64,000 nucleotides of DNA from an uncultured Gammaproteobacteria bacterium (GCA_964576435.1 CAZNUP010000001.1:611030-675029), one strand, 5' to 3'; shown: positions 44,417 to 54,085, counted from the first letter of the stretch. Made by a program: numbers and translations. The notes: a model not told the origin generated them from the sequence alone.

Positions 44417-44641
44417 ATGGTAATGGATTTTCTCTGGTGGATCATAGGTTTAGCAATTTGGATAGCAATCGCCTTTTGGCCAGCACGAGTTGCAAGTAGA
44501 AAAGGTCATAGTTTTTGGATGTTTTTTATCCTAAGTTTAATTTTCTTTCCCCTCTCAATAATATTGGCTTACGTTGTTAAAGATAAGAAAGCCCCTAAGC
44601 AAGCGGCAGCACCAACTGAAACTTCTCCGAAGGAAAACTAA
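44417..44641 (+). CDS. small two-TM membrane protein
   Basis: 74 aa, two hydrophobic helices, Lys-rich tail. Confidence 0.35.
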   Translation: MVMDFLWWIIGLAIWIAIAFWPARVASRKGHSFWMFFILSLIFFPLSIILAYVVKDKKAPKQAAAPTETSPKEN

Positions 44642-44677: not shown

Positions 44678-46204
44678 TCATCTAATTGTTCTTGCTTGCG
44701 TCAAAAGAACCCATGGAGAACTATCAGGACTTGATGTGGAAGCAGCTGGACTTTCTCCCTCAGTCCACCATTTAGCTTGATAAGGCACTCCGTCAAAAAG
44801 CACTCGTTGTCCAGCTTCATAAATCTCTTTCCCTGACCAATTTGGGTAAGTTCCAACAGGCAATTTAACTTGTGGGATAGGTTTTTCACCAGGCATAACC
44901 GGTCCTATAAGTTTCCAAGGTGTTTGCCAAACTTGTAAAACTGGATTATCTGGTAAATCTCCCTTAGTCCACCATTTAGCCTGATAAACATTGTGGTGCC
45001 AAACTACTTTAGTTCCTTCTAAGTAAGTTCCATTCTTGGTCCAAATTTGGTATGGACTTTTTTGTGGATCATCTGGTTTTTGTTTTGTATTGTTTGACTT
45101 TGTAACAACTTGGATAGATCCAATCTTTCCTGTAAGTCCGTTACCAAGTGTTTTAGAAAACTGTAGCTTGTTTTGATTAACTCCACTACATGAATCAGAA
45201 ACGATTGAAAGATCAACAAAGTTTTCCCCACACTTAATATCCCTATTTGCTGACCACATAGACACTCTAGCAATTCCTTTAGAAATCGCAAACTTGTTAA
45301 GTCCAGTTGCGTTTTCTGTGGTGAATATTTCGTCAATCACATCATTTTGACCAATCATTGGAGTAGCACCAATCTTTGCCCAAATAGAACCACTATCAAA
45401 GTTAAACCCAGCTTGCTCGTAAATAATCCCCAGCTGTCTATGAGTTTCAGTTAATGCCTCTTCTGAAGCTTCAAGCATACTTTGGTTCTTTGATTTACTT
45501 GCACCATAGTCCATTGTCATAACATTAACTCCAGCCAAATTGACACCATTAGCTAATGTCTCGCTAACTCCATTAGTTCCATCCTCTGTGAGTCCTTGAG
45601 GGGCAACAGGAAGTGTAAGCCAAACTTCAAGCTTCTTCTTTTTATCTTTCTGAATTTGTTGGATTTTAGAAACAACCAAAGCTCTTTTCTTTAAAGCCTC
45701 TTTGTTTGTAAGACCTTTACCCTCAAGATCAAAATCGACTGTATCAATATTGTATCTATCAATAACAGCTTGATAGGCTGCTTGTAGTTTCTTTGAATCA
45801 CTACAACTTGTAGAGAGTTCATCATTTAAAAGTCCTCCAAATGAAATAGCAACATTGCCACCTTTTTGTCTAAACCTAGCAATTCTCCTGTCAAGATCAA
45901 ACTGACTATTAGCTTCATCTAAAGTATAAACCCCTCCCCAAGATGGCGTACAAGGTTCATATTTTGACGCTACAACAAATGCCAAAACCACATTTTTTTG
46001 CCCAGTGGTCATGTCAGTTTGTTCAAATGCATAAGTTGGTGTTGCAGTCACATCAACGTAAGGAGCAAACCATTGGCGAGGTGTAGCATCAATTTCTGGT
46101 TTTTGAAACTTGTTCCAGCTAAGAAACCCGCCAAAACAAAGCCCTATTAAAATAAGGACCACTAAGATAAGCCTTGGCAATGATAATCGTCTATTCTTTT
46201 CCAT
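44678..46204 (-). CDS. GH18 chitinase-like glycoside hydrolase with two C-terminal CBM5/12 chitin-binding modules
   Basis: N-terminal TM; GH18 catalytic DxxDxDxE (DTVDFDLEGKG); two CBM5/12 signatures (YLEGTKVVWHHNVYQAKWWTKGDLP and YEAGQRVLFDGVPYQAKWWTEGESP). Confidence 0.75.
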   Translation of the reverse strand: MEKNRRLSLPRLILVVLILIGLCFGGFLSWNKFQKPEIDATPRQWFAPYVDVTATPTYAFEQTDMTTGQKNVVLAFVVASKYEPCTPSWGGVYTLDEANSQFDLDRRIARFRQKGGNVAISFGGLLNDELSTSCSDSKKLQAAYQAVIDRYNIDTVDFDLEGKGLTNKEALKKRALVVSKIQQIQKDKKKKLEVWLTLPVAPQGLTEDGTNGVSETLANGVNLAGVNVMTMDYGASKSKNQSMLEASEEALTETHRQLGIIYEQAGFNFDSGSIWAKIGATPMIGQNDVIDEIFTTENATGLNKFAISKGIARVSMWSANRDIKCGENFVDLSIVSDSCSGVNQNKLQFSKTLGNGLTGKIGSIQVVTKSNNTKQKPDDPQKSPYQIWTKNGTYLEGTKVVWHHNVYQAKWWTKGDLPDNPVLQVWQTPWKLIGPVMPGEKPIPQVKLPVGTYPNWSGKEIYEAGQRVLFDGVPYQAKWWTEGESPAASTSSPDSSPWVLLTQARTIR

Positions 46205-48493
46205 TTAGTTTAAACGTAAAAATGTATGTGGCATAGCTTGCTTCAAGTCCCCATGATAAAGAACCGCTCTCCAGTTAATGTCTTGTTTCTCTTCCATCTT
46301 TTTCTTAGAAACTTTAGGCTTATTTTCAACAAATAACCAGTTCATAAATCCAACCCATACGTCTAAGGCAATATTTCCCAGTCCAATGTAAGCAATAATT
46401 GCCCACGAGGCAACAAATGCGTTAAAGAATGCAAAAGCTGCATTTCCCCAGTTTTCTACTTCAACGTTTCGGTAAACCGTAAAAATTGAAAAGGCGACAA
46501 TTAAAAGTGGGGCGATCACATAAACTGGCGCAGTTACAGTTCTATTTTTAATCTTTGGAGTCCTTGCAAAAGGAATCTTTTTACCAGTTAGTGCTTGTTC
46601 CAATGATTTTAAGATACCTGCAAGGTTAACTGGCAACATAATAAGGTTAAAACCATAAATTCTAAAAATATCGCTTCTATTGTATCCACAATATTTAAGA
46701 TCAGACGCCATTGCTAAAAAGTAGGGAAGTGCCGCTAAGATAACGAGTGGACTCAAAAGTCTTCCGTCGTATGGGTAAGCAAGAAGGAAGATGAGTCCAA
46801 ATGTGGCCCAGGCAATTGAGGCAATATAATTAAGTCGAAGCAGAAATTCCATTCTGGTCATAGTCTCTTGTCCTTTTCTGTTTCCCTTAAATTGTGACCA
46901 AAGTTTCCCCATCATGAGAAGTCCGCCATTTGCCCATCTTCGTCTCTGGACTACCAAAGAACCAAAATCCGGAGGAGTTGCACTATAACTAAGCCGTTCA
47001 GGGTAGTTGATGAGTTTCCATCCATGTTTTGTTAAGTCTATACTAGATTCAGTATCTTCAATAACTGTTCTGTCTTGGATGTATCTTTTAATTTCAAATC
47101 CTCTCTCAAATTCTTTTTCAACAATGTCGTTAAGTGCCGCTTTTCTAATAACAGCGTTAGCTCCGACCCAAAAAGTAGCTCCATAAAAAGTCATTCCTTG
47201 ATGGAGAATGTGTTGGATGTCTGTTGTCGCCCCAGCTAGTCTTTCAATTCTTGAATAGGCACCTCTAAATGAAGAGTATGGTGTTTGTGTTACAGCCACT
47301 TTTTCATTTCCAGGTTGTTGTAGGAAATAGACAAGTCTAAGGCAGTATTCTCGAAGAAGTATTGAGTCTGCATCAAGTGTAAGTAAAAACTCACTATCTG
47401 GAACATTTAAGTTACTGGTATTATGTGTTTTAGTTGGAGCAAGGACAGTTCCTCCCATTGTTTTCTCTTCCCTATAGCTCCCACCCATAAGTCCAATATA
47501 AACATTCAAGTTCATTGCTTTATTAAGTTCGTGAGAAACGGAGATGTACTTTTTTCGTTGGAATGCCTCTATATCTGCTTGGAATGTCCAAACCAGTCTT
47601 CTATAAAGTTGAAGGGCCCTGTCAAATGGAATGGCTTCATTGTCTTTAACTGCCATCTTGAGTGCTTTTGCCACAAGATCAAAATCAGAAGCAAGCTCAC
47701 CAAAAACTTGATCGGCAAAAAACACATCAACGTGATCCTCTATTTTTTCTTCTTTACTTTTTTGTCTAAGCCAACTGGATGCCCAAAGGTAACTTTCGGC
47801 AAGCTTAAGTGTTTCATGATTTGAAATCTTTCCTCGTCCTGAGTTTATCGTCTTAAAGTCATTAAAAGATTTTTTGAATTTTATATATGGTTCAGACAAG
47901 AACAATTTAATATCTTTGCCAATATTAAGTGTTTTTTCTTGTCTTTTAGCTTCATTTGGATCTGCTGGATTAGGCTTGTCATCAACTAACAGAACGATTT
48001 TGAGACTTGGATATTCTTGAAGAGCTGCAGAAAGTAATGTTTTTCGAATAACTTGATATTCTTCTCTAAAAGAAGGAACTAAGACTGTAATTCCAGGTTG
48101 TTTATCAGAAAAATGCTTATCAAGAAGTGCTCTAGGAACTCTCATGTGACCATTAAATCTTTGAAGTGCTCCTAGTCTAGTTACTAGATAGATTAAAGAT
48201 GACAATGTAAGAAGCGAAACGACTAGGGCGTAACCAAAAGCCTGCATTGTAAAATGATAACTTTGTGGTCCATCAAAAAGCTGTCTAATTATGATTGAAA
48301 AGATATAGAGAACCCAGAAAAAGACTGTAGCAACAATAGCAAGTCTTCCAAGAGCTAAACTCCAAGTAGATGGCACATCATGTAAGGCGGGAAGTGGGGT
48401 AAAACTTTTTTCAGTTCCCCATTGCCTCTTGTGCTTGTCATTAGATTGGACAACAATTTCTTTAAAATTTCCCATTAGGCAGTAATATAGCAA
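46205..48493 (-). CDS. processive family-2 glycosyltransferase (cellulose/chitin-synthase-like, QxxRW) integral membrane protein
   Basis: Multiple TM helices flanking a GT-A domain with D, DxD (LLTLDADS) and QRRRWANGG motifs; stop abuts the chitinase start (46205/46204). Confidence 0.8.
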   Translation of the reverse strand: MLYYCLMGNFKEIVVQSNDKHKRQWGTEKSFTPLPALHDVPSTWSLALGRLAIVATVFFWVLYIFSIIIRQLFDGPQSYHFTMQAFGYALVVSLLTLSSLIYLVTRLGALQRFNGHMRVPRALLDKHFSDKQPGITVLVPSFREEYQVIRKTLLSAALQEYPSLKIVLLVDDKPNPADPNEAKRQEKTLNIGKDIKLFLSEPYIKFKKSFNDFKTINSGRGKISNHETLKLAESYLWASSWLRQKSKEEKIEDHVDVFFADQVFGELASDFDLVAKALKMAVKDNEAIPFDRALQLYRRLVWTFQADIEAFQRKKYISVSHELNKAMNLNVYIGLMGGSYREEKTMGGTVLAPTKTHNTSNLNVPDSEFLLTLDADSILLREYCLRLVYFLQQPGNEKVAVTQTPYSSFRGAYSRIERLAGATTDIQHILHQGMTFYGATFWVGANAVIRKAALNDIVEKEFERGFEIKRYIQDRTVIEDTESSIDLTKHGWKLINYPERLSYSATPPDFGSLVVQRRRWANGGLLMMGKLWSQFKGNRKGQETMTRMEFLLRLNYIASIAWATFGLIFLLAYPYDGRLLSPLVILAALPYFLAMASDLKYCGYNRSDIFRIYGFNLIMLPVNLAGILKSLEQALTGKKIPFARTPKIKNRTVTAPVYVIAPLLIVAFSIFTVYRNVEVENWGNAAFAFFNAFVASWAIIAYIGLGNIALDVWVGFMNWLFVENKPKVSKKKMEEKQDINWRAVLYHGDLKQAMPHTFLRLN

Positions 48494-48669: not shown

Positions 48670-49104
48670 ATGCATAAGATGTTAGTAGGCCTAGTTGTGG
48701 TCTTTGTAGCAATCACAGGGTTCTTTATTGGTACCCAGAAACCAGATTCGCAGGCAGTATTTGCCCAAACCACGACACCATCCAAAACAAATGCAGGAAC
48801 CGTGGCTTCTGCTGCTTACGCTAAGTGTATTCAAAACGGAGGGTTTGTTACTACAGACAGAAGAGGTTCAAGTGGTTTTTACAACATTTGCAATTTCTCA
48901 GACGACATGACATGCGAACTATATGCTCTTTATGAAGCCCAGTGTCCTATTGGTGGAGTTCACACAATCGGCTACAACACAAAACCACAAGTCTTTTGTG
49001 CCTTAAGGGGAGGTACCCCTCAAGGAAAAGATAATGGCCAATGTAAAATGCCAGACGGAAAAACTTGTTCTACAAGCCAAGTCTACAAAAACTTTTCTTG
49101 CTAA
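48670..49104 (+). CDS. Cys-rich secreted DUF333-like (putative hemolysin-like) protein
   Basis: N-terminal TM then a Cys-rich domain containing CIQNGGF...C...C, typical of DUF333. Confidence 0.4.
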   Translation: MHKMLVGLVVVFVAITGFFIGTQKPDSQAVFAQTTTPSKTNAGTVASAAYAKCIQNGGFVTTDRRGSSGFYNICNFSDDMTCELYALYEAQCPIGGVHTIGYNTKPQVFCALRGGTPQGKDNGQCKMPDGKTCSTSQVYKNFSC

Positions 49105-50980: not shown

Positions 50981-51778
50981 CTATTCTATCGGCAAATATA
51001 TTTCAAAAAACTGCCTGGTATTATCCGAATCAACCTTACGATAGATTTCAAAGTCAGGAACATTTTTTTTAACTTTCAACTTATGGATTCGGCAATATTT
51101 TTCTAACTCTTTCCAAAAAAGTGATAGCAAACTACCAGAGCCATTGTGTGTATAGGTAACCACCTTGCCTGGATTAAACTCAAAATACTTAACCTCACTT
51201 TTAAATTGTCCTTTCACTTTCATTTGCTTATTCGCCAGAGCCCCTATCCTAATCTTGCTTTGCTTAGGCTGGTAAGTGGGATTATCAAATATAGCCAAGG
51301 TCGTGAAGTCTTGACCCTTATTTTCAAACATTTCTTCTAACTCTTCGCAATAGTCACCAATCTTGGAGTAAGGTCCAACTTTCTCAATGTAATAAACTCC
51401 AAACGATTTCAAGGTTTTAATCTCAGGCTTAACCATTGTGCCATTTAACTTCATGTTCCCTAAAAACTTATCGAGACTAGTGAGGTTAAATTCGAGCTGT
51501 TTTATCTGCTTTTTAATAAGGGACTTTTTGCTATTAAAAAGCCCTGTTAAGTTTCCTTTATTCTTTAGGTAAAGTTTAATCTCATCTAACGAGATACCGA
51601 GAGTGGTCAGTAAGAGGATCATTTGATAGTCAAGAACTTGTTCTTCAAGGTAATAACGATACTTCCGACTATTAACCTTAACAGGCTTCAAAACGCCCTT
51701 TTCATCATAGAAATGGACTGTCCTTTTGGTTGTGTTAGCCAGCTTCGCAAACTCGCCTGGAGTGATATAGTTGCTCAT
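50981..51778 (-). CDS. MerR-family transcriptional regulator with C-terminal GyrI-like effector-binding domain (BmrR-like)
   Basis: N-terminal MerR HTH (YITPGEFAKLANTTKRTVHFYDEKGVLKP), coiled-coil linker, C-terminal GyrI-like fold ending ...FFEIYLPIE. Confidence 0.75.
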   Translation of the reverse strand: MSNYITPGEFAKLANTTKRTVHFYDEKGVLKPVKVNSRKYRYYLEEQVLDYQMILLLTTLGISLDEIKLYLKNKGNLTGLFNSKKSLIKKQIKQLEFNLTSLDKFLGNMKLNGTMVKPEIKTLKSFGVYYIEKVGPYSKIGDYCEELEEMFENKGQDFTTLAIFDNPTYQPKQSKIRIGALANKQMKVKGQFKSEVKYFEFNPGKVVTYTHNGSGSLLSLFWKELEKYCRIHKLKVKKNVPDFEIYRKVDSDNTRQFFEIYLPIE

Positions 51779-51811: not shown

Positions 51812-51841
51812 ATCCTATAAAGTTAGGAGGTGTCAAGCTTT

Positions 51842-54085
51842 ATGGATACTATTGTCATAAAAGGAGCCAAAGAGAACAACCTTAAAAAGGTCGATTTAAA
51901 GATCCCCAGAAATAAGGTTATCTGTTTCGTGGGTGTCTCAGGCTCAGGAAAGTCAACAATTGCTTTTGACATTGTAGCTAGAGAAGGTCAGAGGCAGTAT
52001 TTTGAGTCTTTACCCGCATTTGCTAGAAGGTATCTTCAAAAGGCTAATAGACCAGACGTTGAGGAAATTAGAGGTATCTCTTCAACCATTATTATTAGCC
52101 AAGACAGAGTTGCTAGTAACCCAAGATCAACTGTTGGCACACTAACAGAAACATATACTTATTTGCGAATGCTCTACTCCAGAGTAGGTTTGCCATCGTT
52201 AGATTCTTCTTATTATTCCTTCAACCATCCGAATGGTGCATGTCCAAAATGTAAAGGGCTTGGCAAGGCATTAGAACTTGACCCCAAAAAGCTTATTGAC
52301 TTTAATAAAAGCTTGAATGAGGGAGCTCTGTTGCACAGTGAATGGAAGGTTGGAGGCAGAATGTGGTCAATTATTAAGGCTACCCATTTTTTTGAGATGG
52401 ATAAGAAAATTAAGGACTTTGACAGTGAGGACATTGAAAAGTTGTTATATGCACCAAAGCAATTATGGCAAGATGAAAGCGAGTATGGAGCTAATAAATG
52501 GACTTATCAAGGGATTATAACCAGACTTCAAAGTAGAGACCGCCATGACCGAGATGAACTGGGTTATGTTAAGGAGTCCGAATGTAGTGAGTGTAATGGG
52601 GGCAGACTTAATAGCAAAGCTTTGAGCGTAAGGTTAAATGGTAAGAATATTGGAGAGGTTGGCAACATGTCCTTGCCAGATTGCCTTGGATTTGTGCAGT
52701 CCATTGATCTTCCCCAAGCTATGATTATTAGACCACGACTAGAAGAACAACTGCAGAACCTTGTAGATGCTGGGGTTGGATATTTGTCTCTTAATAGGTC
52801 AACTGACACTTTGTCAGGTGGGGAAGCTCAAAGAGTGAAATTGGCTCGTCAGATGGGTTGCGACTTGATTGAGACAATATATGTTCTTGATGAACCTACA
52901 GCTGGACTTCATCCAAGAGATGTAGATAAAGTAATTAAAAACTTAACAAAGCTACGAGACTCTGGTAACACCGTGCTAGTCGTGGAGCATGATCCAGCTG
53001 TAATAAAAAGTGCTGACTATATAGTTGAAGTCGGACCAGGTGGTGGCAAAAATGGAGGGACAATCATTGCTCAAGGATCGTTGAAAGAAATATATGATAG
53101 CCCCAAGTCTGTATCGTCTTCCTATTTGAAAAATGGTTTGCACACAACTAAGAGAGACTCACAGAGAGAACCAACTGGCTCTCTGAAAGTTATAAATGCT
53201 AATAGAAATAACCTTAAAGGATTAGACGTAAGCATCCCCACTGGTGTTTTGGTTGCACTCACAGGTGTTTCAGGATCAGGAAAAAGTTCACTTGTTGAGG
53301 AGATTTTAGCTCAGCATGGAGAGAAAATTGTCATGATTGATCAAAGCCCTGTTGGTAATAATAAAAGAGGTTGTATTGGCACCTATACAGGAGTATTTGA
53401 TATTGTCAGAAGAATATTTGCAAAAGAACATGGCATGTCTGAAAGCCTATTTAGCTTCAACTCACATGGTGCTTGTGACGAATGTGACGGGCTTGGCTAC
53501 ATTGATATGGAAATGAATTTTTTAGGTAATGTAAAGATACACTGCGAGACCTGTAATGGCAGTAGATATAAAGAAAAGGTTCTTCGCTACAAATATAAGA
53601 AAAAGAACATTGCAGAAGTGCTGGGTATGACCGCAGCTGAAGTAAGTGAATTATTTGACAACAATGAAATTAAAAGTAAAACCAGCCTTCTAGTGGAGGT
53701 GGGGCTTGATTATATGGAGTTGGGGCAAAGCTTGGACACTCTATCTGGTGGCGAGTCTCAACGACTAAAGCTCGCAAGCAGGCTGCAAAATAAAGGAGAG
53801 TTCTACATTTTGGACGAACCCACATCTGGCTTACACTTCGCTGACATAGAGAAGCTAATGCGACTTCTTAATAAGTTAGTTGACAATGGCAACACAGTAT
53901 TAGTGATCGAACACAATTTGGATGTCATTAGTCAGGCAGATTGGATTATTGACTTAGGACCTGAGGGAGGAGATAAAGGTGGAGCGATTGTTGCTCAGGG
54001 AACTGTTAAAGAAATTATGAATGAAAAGAGCTCATACACGGGTCAATATCTACTGAAAAGCTTTAACCACCAATCTTCTTCCTAA
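51842..54085 (+). CDS. UvrA paralog, class II (UvrA2/DrrC/Ecm16-like), lacking the UvrB-interaction domain
   Basis: 747 aa from ATG 51842 (SD GGAGGTG at 51826-32; track starts at GTG 51830). Two ABC modules (GVSGSGKST; GVSGSGKSS; [16 protein letters not shown]), zinc-finger Cys pairs (CPKCKG; CDECDG...CETCNG), about 220 aa shorter than the canonical UvrA at 2951. Confidence 0.85.
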   Translation: MDTIVIKGAKENNLKKVDLKIPRNKVICFVGVSGSGKSTIAFDIVAREGQRQYFESLPAFARRYLQKANRPDVEEIRGISSTIIISQDRVASNPRSTVGTLTETYTYLRMLYSRVGLPSLDSSYYSFNHPNGACPKCKGLGKALELDPKKLIDFNKSLNEGALLHSEWKVGGRMWSIIKATHFFEMDKKIKDFDSEDIEKLLYAPKQLWQDESEYGANKWTYQGIITRLQSRDRHDRDELGYVKESECSECNGGRLNSKALSVRLNGKNIGEVGNMSLPDCLGFVQSIDLPQAMIIRPRLEEQLQNLVDAGVGYLSLNRSTDTLSGGEAQRVKLARQMGCDLIETIYVLDEPTAGLHPRDVDKVIKNLTKLRDSGNTVLVVEHDPAVIKSADYIVEVGPGGGKNGGTIIAQGSLKEIYDSPKSVSSSYLKNGLHTTKRDSQREPTGSLKVINANRNNLKGLDVSIPTGVLVALTGVSGSGKSSLVEEILAQHGEKIVMIDQSPVGNNKRGCIGTYTGVFDIVRRIFAKEHGMSESLFSFNSHGACDECDGLGYIDMEMNFLGNVKIHCETCNGSRYKEKVLRYKYKKKNIAEVLGMTAAEVSELFDNNEIKSKTSLLVEVGLDYMELGQSLDTLSGGESQRLKLASRLQNKGEFYILDEPTSGLHFADIEKLMRLLNKLVDNGNTVLVIEHNLDVISQADWIIDLGPEGGDKGGAIVAQGTVKEIMNEKSSYTGQYLLKSFNHQSSS

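Follow-up and report, generated by a model that had tools for sequence, protein, structure and literature searches.

Introduction

A hydrolase that acts on the polymer is a familiar companion of the polymerase in synthase-dependent polysaccharide systems, a role played by BcsZ, the hydrolase domain of PgaB, AlgL and PssZ. Chitin is regarded as a eukaryotic polymer, a known bacterial case being NodC oligomers. The chitin synthases (CHS) described from bacteria are eukaryote-derived division-1 enzymes that were acquired horizontally by Proteobacteria and are uncharacterised; their operons encode DUF1501 and DUF1800 proteins and an epimerase, without a partner from glycoside hydrolase family 18 (GH18) (Gonçalves et al, 2016; PMC5122149). 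In Streptomyces, the product of the CslA-GlxA-CslZ system has been described as "cellulose- or chitin-like", and MatB is a fusion of a family 2 glycosyltransferase (GT2) with a family 4 carbohydrate esterase (CE4) (PMC5972031). Here, we analyse a GT2-GH18 gene pair located in a 64,000-nt stretch of DNA, referred to below as the window (GCA_964576435.1 CAZNUP010000001.1:611030-675029; source label uncultured Gammaproteobacteria bacterium).

The pair encodes a putative membrane-integrated processive synthase and a predicted membrane-anchored chitinase with two carbohydrate-binding modules (CBMs) of the CBM5/12 type. As detailed below, the two genes constitute a functionally coupled, horizontally mobile two-gene module. 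On balance, we favour reading this module as a self-contained, mobile combination of synthase and hydrolase for a chitin-like surface glycan that contains β-1,4-linked N-acetylglucosamine (GlcNAc).

Results

The synthase and chitinase genes abut in the window

The pair consists of two minus-strand open reading frames (ORFs) that lie end to end at 44678-48493. The GT2 frame is readable from a TTG at 48493, and the downstream ATG at 48475, which yields a product of 756 aa, is backed as the start by an exact match to database protein P0001 and by the starts of homologues. The GT2 stop codon (TAA, 46205-46207) is followed at once by the GH18 ATG at 46204. The first-pass annotation of this DNA had described a GT2 with D, DxD and QRRRW motifs that abuts a membrane-anchored GH18 with a DxxDxDxE motif and duplicated YQAKWWT chitin-binding modules; the frames, the motifs (LLVDD, LDADS and QRRRW in the GT2; DTVDFDLE and two copies of YQAKWW in the GH18) and the anchor were all located (Table 1). 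Public annotations of such proteins range over "glycosyltransferase family 2", "cellulose synthase (UDP-forming)", "chitinase", "carbohydrate-binding protein" and "hypothetical protein".

The two genes stay together across phyla and after inversion

When one genome per GTDB species was scanned with a degenerate pattern, at least 574 relatives of the window GT2 were recovered, and 81 related loci were analysed. The best 80 relatives are 55-67% identical to the window GT2. Their hosts include lineages of the candidate phyla radiation (CPR; Saccharibacteria, Woesebacteria, Collierbacteria, Dojkabacteria, WWE3, Moranbacteria and Paceibacteria), actinobacteria of the Microbacteriaceae (Leifsonia, Cryobacterium, Frigoribacterium and others) and Micrococcaceae (Arthrobacter), Bacillaceae (Gottfriedia, Neobacillus and Paenisporosarcina) and one Ktedonobacteria metagenome-assembled genome (MAG). 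In a tblastn search with the window GH18 as query, a GH18 homologue adjoins the GT2 at all 81 loci, spanning CPR, Actinobacteria, Bacillaceae and Ktedonobacteria, and is therefore adjacent far beyond chance. The CBM region was found at every locus where the contig reaches far enough. The usual arrangement has the GH18 gene immediately downstream in the same orientation; members of the Arthrobacter group have the two genes divergent yet still adjacent. The GC content of the loci runs from 32 to 72%, and the genes have therefore long been resident in very different genomes. Clustering of all ORFs in the flanks revealed no third gene common to the 81 loci; further flank clusters that had been candidate partners proved to be shadow ORFs within the two genes themselves.

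The two proteins have also diverged in step: across 76 loci, pairwise identities of the GT2 correlate with those of the GH18 (Pearson r = 0.86, Mantel p = 0.001). In many loci the stop codon of one gene adjoins or overlaps the start codon of the other, and a profile search of 1.84 billion cluster representatives yielded a single 1345-aa polypeptide (P0130) that comprises the GT2, the anchor, the GH18 domain and both CBMs, with 41% identity over 504 aa to the window GH18. A second apparent fusion, P0123, was discarded, its C-terminal 440 aa being a low-complexity Pro/Gln-rich tail.

Copies of the pair are also carried by plasmids. It is found on 13 mobilizable dairy plasmids of Lactococcus lactis/cremoris, where the GH18 is 43% identical to that of the window and the proteinase genes prtP and prsA (prtM) immediately precede the pair; we studied those of pUC063A (NZ_CP016715.2, 42-46 kb), in which an IS6 transposase gene comes next, and pG323 (NZ_AP024213.1). 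On one Lactococcus plasmid the GH18 is labelled "hypothetical protein". Differing annotated starts had raised the suspicion of decayed Lactococcus copies, and both genes proved intact. The Arthrobacter sp. NicSoilB8 plasmid pNicSoilB8 (NZ_AP024656.1, 186.6-204.8 kb) carries a divergent pair among transposase genes, and near it lie a second, stand-alone GH18 gene and a gene for a GGDEF-domain protein.

Because of the adjacency at 81 of 81 loci, the correlated divergence, the fusion and the joint carriage on plasmids, we conclude that the two genes form a functionally coupled and horizontally mobile module, and the two proteins very probably work together. The coupled synthase/hydrolase pair proposed at first pass is thus borne out by an adjacency that survives inversion, by the parallel divergence, by the fusion and by the relatives with GlcNAc-polymer deacetylases described below. 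The first pass had called a chitin-like exopolymer uncommon in bacteria; the module itself is widespread, with at least 574 species-level genomes besides the plasmids, though uncharacterised.

A rough neighbour-joining tree built from 76 GT2 sequences (loci L004, L005 and L008-L012 set against L023-L081) places the actinobacterial clade as sister to a Saccharibacteria clade that also holds the Ktedonobacteria copy, and not outside all CPR sequences. Saccharibacteria live on Actinobacteria, and the sister clades may record gene exchange between epibiont and host, as far as a distance tree can indicate.

The GH18 protein has the features of an active, membrane-anchored chitinase

The second gene product matches PF00704 (32.0 bits, gathering threshold 29.6) and, in two stretches, PF02839 (CBM5/12; 42 bits, threshold 26.2). 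In phmmer searches, its closest solved relatives were the hydrolase domain of Streptomyces venezuelae chitinase 1 (9buf; E = 3e-56, 38% identity) and Pyrococcus furiosus chitinase AD2 (2dsk; E = 1e-27, 30% identity), and the catalytic DFDLE segment aligns with DFDIE of 9buf. The AlphaFold2 (AF2) model (pLDDT 83.9) superimposes in Foldseek on 9buf with a TMt of 0.93 (rmsd 2.0 Å) and on 2dsk with a TMt of 0.85-0.87. We aligned 29 sequences, including the Lactococcus and Arthrobacter plasmid copies, and separately 74 CPR homologues. In both alignments D157, D159, E161, the SxGG, MxMDY and MIGQND motifs, W317 and the aromatic residues of the CBMs are invariant or nearly so; Y407, W412, W479 and W480 are invariant in both, and W411 is invariant in the smaller and nearly invariant in the larger. 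The first-pass annotation had allowed for a lectin devoid of the catalytic Glu, and this is not the case, as the Glu and the rest of the catalytic apparatus are kept. With the DxxDxDxE motif and its proton-donor Glu, the barrel fold and a Pfam score above gathering, the protein belongs among the chitinases, and hydrolysis of β-1,4-GlcNAc linkages is its predicted activity. Processive exo-chitinases typically carry an extra α+β insertion; the nearest structures here are compact chitinase domains of ~300 residues, and the domain length suggests an open-cleft, endo-type enzyme.

The only hydrophobic segment of the N-terminus, residues 12-30, is preceded by Arg/Lys residues, and an R(R/K)LSxxR motif stands before the anchor. 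Ser8 and Arg11 of this motif are invariant across CPR, Lactococcus and Arthrobacter. Because the motif is invariant and kept even in the P0130 fusion, its sequence conservation argues that the transmembrane helix has been kept as an anchor that serves a specific role, which may be contact with the synthase. The near-invariance of four cysteines accords with an extracytoplasmic location of the GH18 domain: C85, C134, C325 and C339 are invariant in the 74 CPR homologues, the Arthrobacter plasmid protein keeps the first three and has Gly in place of C339, and the Lactococcus plasmid protein has all four replaced. Exported proteins of lactic acid bacteria avoid disulfides, and the replacement in Lactococcus accords with this.

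The GT2 protein forms a distinct family of processive synthases

The GT2 matches PF13632 (E = 7e-35), and its D, DxD, ED and QRRRW motifs are invariant or nearly so among 107 homologues. The AF2 model (pLDDT 87.3, pTM 0.87) shows two N-terminal transmembrane helices, a cytosolic GT-A domain, interface helices, about six C-terminal membrane helices and a C-terminal tail of ~40 aa. The tail contains a (D/N)WxAVLYHG motif in which W735 and G742 are invariant and L739, Y740 and H741 nearly invariant. Between the first Asp motif and NKAMNLN lies a helical insertion of ~130 aa with invariant residues of its own, including EDHVD at 246-250. The motifs, the flanking transmembrane helices and the fold place the protein in the superfamily of membrane-integrated processive GT2 enzymes, and these helices would form a translocation channel.

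In agreement, Foldseek searches against the PDB gave a probability of 1.0 to bacterial cellulose synthase BcsA, plant cellulose synthase CesA, hyaluronan synthases (HAS) and CHS. Plant CesA and CslF6 scored highest (TM-score 0.50-0.54), BcsA (4p00, 4hg6) gave E-values of ~1e-13 to 4e-13 with a TM-score of 0.45, hyaluronan synthases followed at 1e-9 to 1e-7, and the chitin synthases Chs1 and PsChs1 reached ~1e-6 with TM-scores of 0.27-0.30. Sequence identity to the solved synthases is 10-15%. We were unable to assign the protein to a known family: all NCBIfam equivalogs fail, and a sequence search of the PDB matched only BcsA, over residues 360-523. Scores against NCBIfam models lie far below their cut-offs for CelA (TIGR03030, 78.9 bits against 699.1; NF008558, 42.6 against 992), PgaC_IcaA (TIGR03937, 45.2 against 422.3) and NodC (TIGR04242, 23.2 against 550; NodC has ~400 aa, the GT2 756), and likewise for the MdoH equivalog. 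In Pfam, the GT2 has no PilZ domain at E ≤ 0.01 and no Chitin_synth_1/2 match, occasional sub-threshold hits to PF03142 being confined to relatives. The bacterial chitin synthases reported in 2016 form another family, of eukaryotic descent. We therefore regard the GT2 as a separate family of the processive synthase superfamily, nearest to cellulose synthases and in no characterised family. Firm clustering with cellulose synthases, which the first pass had named as the outcome that would speak against a chitin-like product, was not observed, given the score of 78.9 against 699 bits and the 10-15% identity.

Three comparisons with known synthases serve as leads only. NKAMNLN resembles the H-x-K-A-G-N-x-N nucleotide-binding motif of cellulose synthases; the KAxNxN and FxxTxK patterns look like those of cellulose synthases, and unlike the GKR and WGTR of HAS/CHS; and the helical insertion would sit at the topological site of the plant P-CR.

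Table 1. Positions of the two genes and of their conserved features in the window
Feature	Window position	Strand	Basis
GT2 glycan synthase gene, 756 aa, predicted membrane-integrated and processive	46205-48475	-	Pfam, AF2, Foldseek
N-terminal transmembrane helix pair, residues ~37-109	48149-48367	-	AF2 helices 37-68 and 73-109; hydropathy peaks 45-63 and 80-98
First Asp motif LLVDD, residues 162-166; D165 invariant, D166 nearly invariant	47978-47992	-	Homologue alignment
Family-specific helical insertion in the GT domain, residues ~173-300	47576-47959	-	AF2 helices 173-297; no Pfam match
HELNKAMNLN motif, residues 315-324; N-K-A-M-N-L-N invariant	47504-47533	-	Homologue alignment
DxD motif LDADS, residues 367-371 (D368, D370)	47363-47377	-	Invariant in 107 sequences
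IEDTESS, residues 472-478; TED-type catalytic-base motif (E473-D474)	47042-47062	-	Invariant
QRRRW, residues 510-514; QxxRW processive-synthase signature	46934-46948	-	Homologue alignment
C-terminal membrane domain, residues ~541-714	46334-46855	-	AF2 helices, hydropathy
Invariant FARTPK loop, residues 636-641	46553-46570	-	Homologue alignment
Conserved cytosolic C-terminal motif (D/N)WxAVLYHG, residues 734-742	46250-46276	-	Homologue alignment
GH18 chitinase gene (predicted), 508 aa, membrane-anchored, two CBM5/12	44678-46204	-	ATG abuts GT2 stop; Pfam, phmmer, AF2
Juxtamembrane R(R/K)LSxxR motif and single transmembrane anchor, residues ~9-34	46103-46192	-	Alignment, AF2, hydropathy
GH18 (β/α)8 catalytic domain, residues ~44-352 (~310 residues)	45149-46075	-	phmmer, Foldseek
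Catalytic motif DTVDFDLE, residues 154-161	45722-45745	-	D157, D159, E161 invariant
First CBM5/12, residues ~383-425; YQAKWW 407-412	44930-45058	-	PF02839; Y407, K410, W412 invariant
Second CBM5/12, residues ~452-500; YQAKWW 475-480	44705-44851	-	PF02839, best stretch 455-496; W479, W480 invariant

Wider relatives of the synthase are linked to deacetylases and wall ligases

At E ≤ 1e-30, the wider GT2 family comprises 697 representatives, of which 17 long proteins were scanned for fused domains. Five of the 17 carry a CE4 domain (P0149, P0150, P0155, P0159 and P0224); in the three of these that were scanned with NCBIfam, the CE4 part is most similar to PgaB, IcaB, NodB and PgdA. A MatB-like identity of the CE4-fused relatives was rejected, their GT2 parts scoring only 30-40 bits to PgaC. 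Four further proteins bear a C-terminal EAL domain (P0126, P0131, P0134 and P0136), two a LytR-CpsA-Psr (LCP) domain of the kind that ligates glycopolymers to peptidoglycan (P0162 and P0198), one (P0169) an amidase-like DMFA2_C domain resembling N,N-dimethylformamidase, and one the GH18-CBM unit. No cellulase and no cellulose-type CBM was found fused among the 17.

An adjacent CE4 gene was present in two of the three proteobacterial GT2 relatives inspected. In Sulfurirhabdus autotrophica (L085, 7001-13218) and a Gallionellaceae MAG (L087, 5692-12309), the GT2 and CE4 genes cluster with genes for an MBOAT acyltransferase and a ~435-aa unknown protein. A PAS-GGDEF gene stands beside the former cluster, and a PAS-rich sensor and a PEP-CTERM-domain gene lie near the latter. 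This proteobacterial cluster may represent another uncharacterised exopolysaccharide system. Such links to EAL and GGDEF domains, together with the LCP fusions, accord with a regulated envelope or matrix polysaccharide.

The partners point to a GlcNAc-containing polymer

GH18 enzymes work by substrate-assisted catalysis, for which an N-acetyl group must occupy subsite -1, the characterised members of the family cut β-1,4 linkages after GlcNAc, and CBM5/12 modules are typical chitin binders. An intact GH18 is kept with the synthase at every locus examined, even in genomes of ~0.7 Mb. Because of the GH18 chemistry, the CBM5/12 modules, the CE4-fused relatives and the proteobacterial relatives with adjacent CE4 genes, we infer from these partners that the polymer is N-acetylated and probably contains GlcNAc; in the GH18-paired clade they favour β-1,4 linkage and thus a chitin-like glycan, and on its being a chitin-like β-1,4 homopolymer we would place no more than even weight. 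The poly-GlcNAc or chitin-like exopolymer envisaged in the first-pass annotation thus holds up as a working proposal where the intact GH18, the CBMs and the deacetylase-linked relatives are concerned, and less well with regard to the synthase itself, the affinities of which are of the cellulose-synthase type.

Synthase and hydrolase are co-located and co-inherited, and the GH18 is predicted to cleave the GT2 product. In the mechanism that we propose, the GT2 would reside in the cytoplasmic membrane, where its cytosolic GT-A domain would polymerise a UDP-sugar, most likely UDP-GlcNAc, and the β-linked chain would exit through the channel formed by the enzyme's own transmembrane helices, as in cellulose, hyaluronan and chitin synthases. 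The GH18, translated from the abutting cistron and anchored on the outer face of the same membrane, would grip the emerging chain by its two CBM5/12 modules and cut β-1,4-GlcNAc linkages endolytically, and cutting would release, shorten or size, or remodel the polymer. In the GH18-paired clade examined (CPR, Actinobacteria, Bacillota and Ktedonobacteria), we found neither an outer-membrane exporter nor a third conserved partner.

Several observations weigh against a chitin-like product. The prediction of that product draws on sequence and structural models, and the affinities of the synthase lean towards cellulose synthases: its best NCBIfam match is CelA (78.9 bits, as against 45 for PgaC and 23 for NodC), its best structural matches are BcsA and plant CesA (TM-score 0.45-0.54), with chitin synthases the weakest among the processive synthases (0.27-0.30), and its KAMNLN and FARTPK motifs resemble those of cellulose synthases. 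CBM5/12 modules are able to bind cellulose as well as chitin. The links to CE4 come from more distant subfamilies, the product of which may differ, and the P0130 fusion could be an artefact of assembly or of a misread stop codon, as the two genes abut. Full-text literature searches gave no description of the pair, which is hence without independent support.

Four other explanations of the pair were weighed. The first dispenses with a lasting polymer: the GH18 would make soluble chito-oligosaccharide signals or primers, or transglycosylate the chain onto the cell wall. In its favour is a putative endo-type GH18 of ~310 aa, with compact domains of ~300 residues as its closest structures, that is obligately coupled to the synthase; transglycosylation by GH18 enzymes is established, and the LCP wall-ligase domains of some relatives point to wall attachment as a theme of the family. 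We nevertheless consider this explanation unlikely, since the presence of two CBM5/12 modules indicates a ligand that is insoluble or polymeric, the modelled GT2 shows all of the channel architecture found in polymer synthases, and the flanks contain no Nod-type acyltransferase, deacetylase or exporter.

The affinities of the synthase invite a second alternative, in which the GT2 makes cellulose or another β-glucan and the co-inherited GH18/CBM protein does not cut it, and instead tethers the glucan through CBM5/12 or attacks exogenous chitin or fungal walls. Cellulose synthases provide the closest profile and structures, the GT2 motifs are presumably of the same type, and CBM5 modules are known to bind cellulose. 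Set against this, the CelA score is 78.9 with a cut-off of 699, PilZ and BcsB are missing, the relatives are paired with N-deacetylases and, among those examined, with no cellulase, and the retention of an intact GH18 at every locus, tiny CPR genomes included, is hard to explain without a shared substrate. We regard a glucan product as quite unlikely.

Thirdly, the pair could be a cassette by which CPR bacteria interact with their hosts, the GH18 being a weapon or feeding enzyme directed at glycans of host or neighbour and the GT2 providing a protective or adhesive coat. That the window organism is assignable to the CPR and that the rough distance tree pairs the actinobacterial copies with a Saccharibacteria clade as sisters, hinting at epibiont-host exchange, would suit such a cassette; the same architecture in free-living Arthrobacter and Leifsonia, Bacillaceae and dairy Lactococcus, and a GH18 that is membrane-anchored rather than secreted, make it highly improbable. 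Finally, mere co-transfer of two unrelated genes on a mobile element, as the plasmid carriage, the neighbouring insertion sequences and transposases, and the serine recombinase and tRNA gene ~10 kb away in the window might suggest, can practically be dismissed, since the adjacency outlasts phyla, a GC range of 32-72% and inversion, only these two genes are retained while the flanks differ, and the frames touch or overlap at stop and start and are fused in P0130.

The window probably derives from a CPR bacterium and offers no further polysaccharide genes

In contrast to its source label, sequence affinities assign the window to a CPR/Patescibacteria bacterium. The closest named homologues of both proteins come from "Patescibacteria group bacterium", the window GT2 clusters with that of a Woesebacteria MAG in the neighbour-joining tree, and the GC content is ~37%. 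Several MAGs (L002, L006, L014, L016, L020, L028 and L042) are labelled "uncultured Gammaproteobacteria", "Bdellovibrionales" or "Pseudomonadales", and their GT2 and GH18 copies, from loci of 37-50% GC, cluster among those of CPR; the taxonomic labels of the bins look doubtful.

The neighbours of the pair in the window are unrelated housekeeping and miscellaneous genes, with no polysaccharide gene among them: uvrABC, genes for ClpB-like and Dus proteins, a phosphatase, a DUF1269 protein, an Exo_endo_phos protein, a secreted DUF333 protein, a MerR regulator and a UvrA-like ABC protein. Scans of the window for promoters and terminators gave counts below the shuffle expectation and were uninformative. 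A 74-aa ORF (44417-44641, plus strand), which encodes a predicted small membrane protein with two transmembrane segments, faces the 3' end of the GH18 gene in convergent orientation; the Logan assembly (L001) has a gene call for it as well, but it is not kept beside the pair elsewhere. Divergently upstream of the GT2, a gene at 48670-49104 (plus strand) encodes a 144-aa secreted, Cys-rich protein with a weak DUF333 match, and it too is not kept next to the pair in other genomes.

Further away, a gene for a large serine recombinase (56119-57621, plus strand; Resolvase, Recombinase and Zn_ribbon_recom domains) overlaps with its 3' end a tRNA-Gln gene (57609-57680, minus strand), and an integrated element may have its boundary at this site, ~8-10 kb from the GT2 gene. 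The gene at 51830-54085 (plus strand) encodes a second, shorter UvrA-like double-ABC protein of 751 aa with a weak match to the UvrA DNA-binding domain, and is divergently paired with a MerR/GyrI-like regulator gene (50981-51778, minus strand); the canonical uvrB, uvrA and uvrC genes lie at 296-8907, and the gene at 2909-5830 (plus strand) offers a comparison for the short UvrA-like protein. Genes for an HlyD-like membrane-fusion protein and an AcrB-family RND transporter (1091 aa) occupy 28205-32954 (plus strand), in what is a small CPR genome.

Discussion

Implications of a bacterial synthase-chitinase module

The pair is more widespread and more tightly coupled than a single window could reveal and, if our reading is confirmed, would represent native bacterial synthesis of a chitin-like polymer. 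A broader proposition, which we put forward only tentatively and with some doubt, is that native synthesis of chitin or a chitin-like β-1,4-GlcNAc glycan occurs in several bacterial phyla (in many CPR lineages, Microbacteriaceae, Micrococcaceae, Bacillaceae and Lactococcus with plasmids) by means of a synthase of bacterial origin, unrelated to eukaryotic CHS, and an ever-present tethered chitinase, the two proteins maybe forming a complex through the anchor motif. If true, bacteria that lack an outer membrane would be credited with a new synthase-dependent exopolysaccharide system, two genes would offer a compact route to chitin-like material, and minimal-genome CPR bacteria would have a defined surface glycan, which would be relevant to host attachment. 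GH18 genes in metagenomes would also have to be reread: the JGI/NCBI label "chitinase" implies degradation, and many CPR and soil "chitinases" would instead be biosynthetic accessories, and chitin would be an envelope or matrix polymer of wide occurrence in bacteria. Direct tests of the hypothesis are within reach, given the plasmid copies in Lactococcus and the strains of Arthrobacter and Leifsonia that can be grown in culture.

Comparison with known systems

The closest parallel in organisation is BcsA/BcsZ. Both synthases are processive GT2 enzymes with D, DxD, TED and QxxRW motifs and a transmembrane channel (predicted for the window protein), and in both systems synthase and hydrolase are encoded together. 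However, identity between the synthases is ~14%, the window GT2 lacks PilZ and has the additional helical insertion of ~130 aa, the pair lacks BcsB and BcsC, and its hydrolase is a GH18 with CBM5/12 modules, whereas that of the Bcs system is a GH8 endoglucanase. Plant CesA and CslF6 share with the window GT2 a helical insertion between the first Asp motif and DxD (in the plant enzymes, the P-CR), but are only 12-14% identical to it; the bacterial, chitinase-paired enzyme lacks their zinc-finger N-terminus and class-specific region.

The poly-GlcNAc systems PgaABCD, IcaADBC and Streptomyces MatAB also combine a GT2 for a GlcNAc polymer with extracellular processing enzymes, and fusions to PgaB/IcaB-like CE4 domains occur among more distant relatives of the window GT2. 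In the poly-GlcNAc systems, the polymer is β-1,6-linked, whereas β-1,4 linkage is predicted here, and the partner in the window is a GH18 of predicted β-1,4 specificity with CBMs in place of a deacetylase or β-1,6 hydrolase. Chitin synthases of the eukaryotic type belong to the same processive superfamily, share the QRRRW pentapeptide and make the product predicted here, yet their structural similarity is low (Foldseek TM-score 0.27-0.30) and the window GT2 has no Pfam chitin-synthase match. Taken by itself, the hydrolase resembles the solved chitinases 9buf and 2dsk (38% and 30% identity, TMt 0.93 and 0.85-0.87, DxDxE aligned), from which it differs by its membrane anchor, the conserved cytosolic R(R/K)LSxxR motif and its place beside a synthase in all loci examined.

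CslA-GlxA-CslZ of Streptomyces is likewise a monoderm synthase-dependent β-1,4-glycan system with a hydrolase gene nearby; its partners are the copper radical oxidase GlxA and an endoglucanase, and its product is cellulase-sensitive. In concept, CslA and MatAB would be the nearest monoderm analogues of the pair. By analogy, the pair would work like a synthase-hydrolase system of the Bcs/BcsZ type, built on a synthase that lies outside the BcsA, PgaC, NodC and CHS families.

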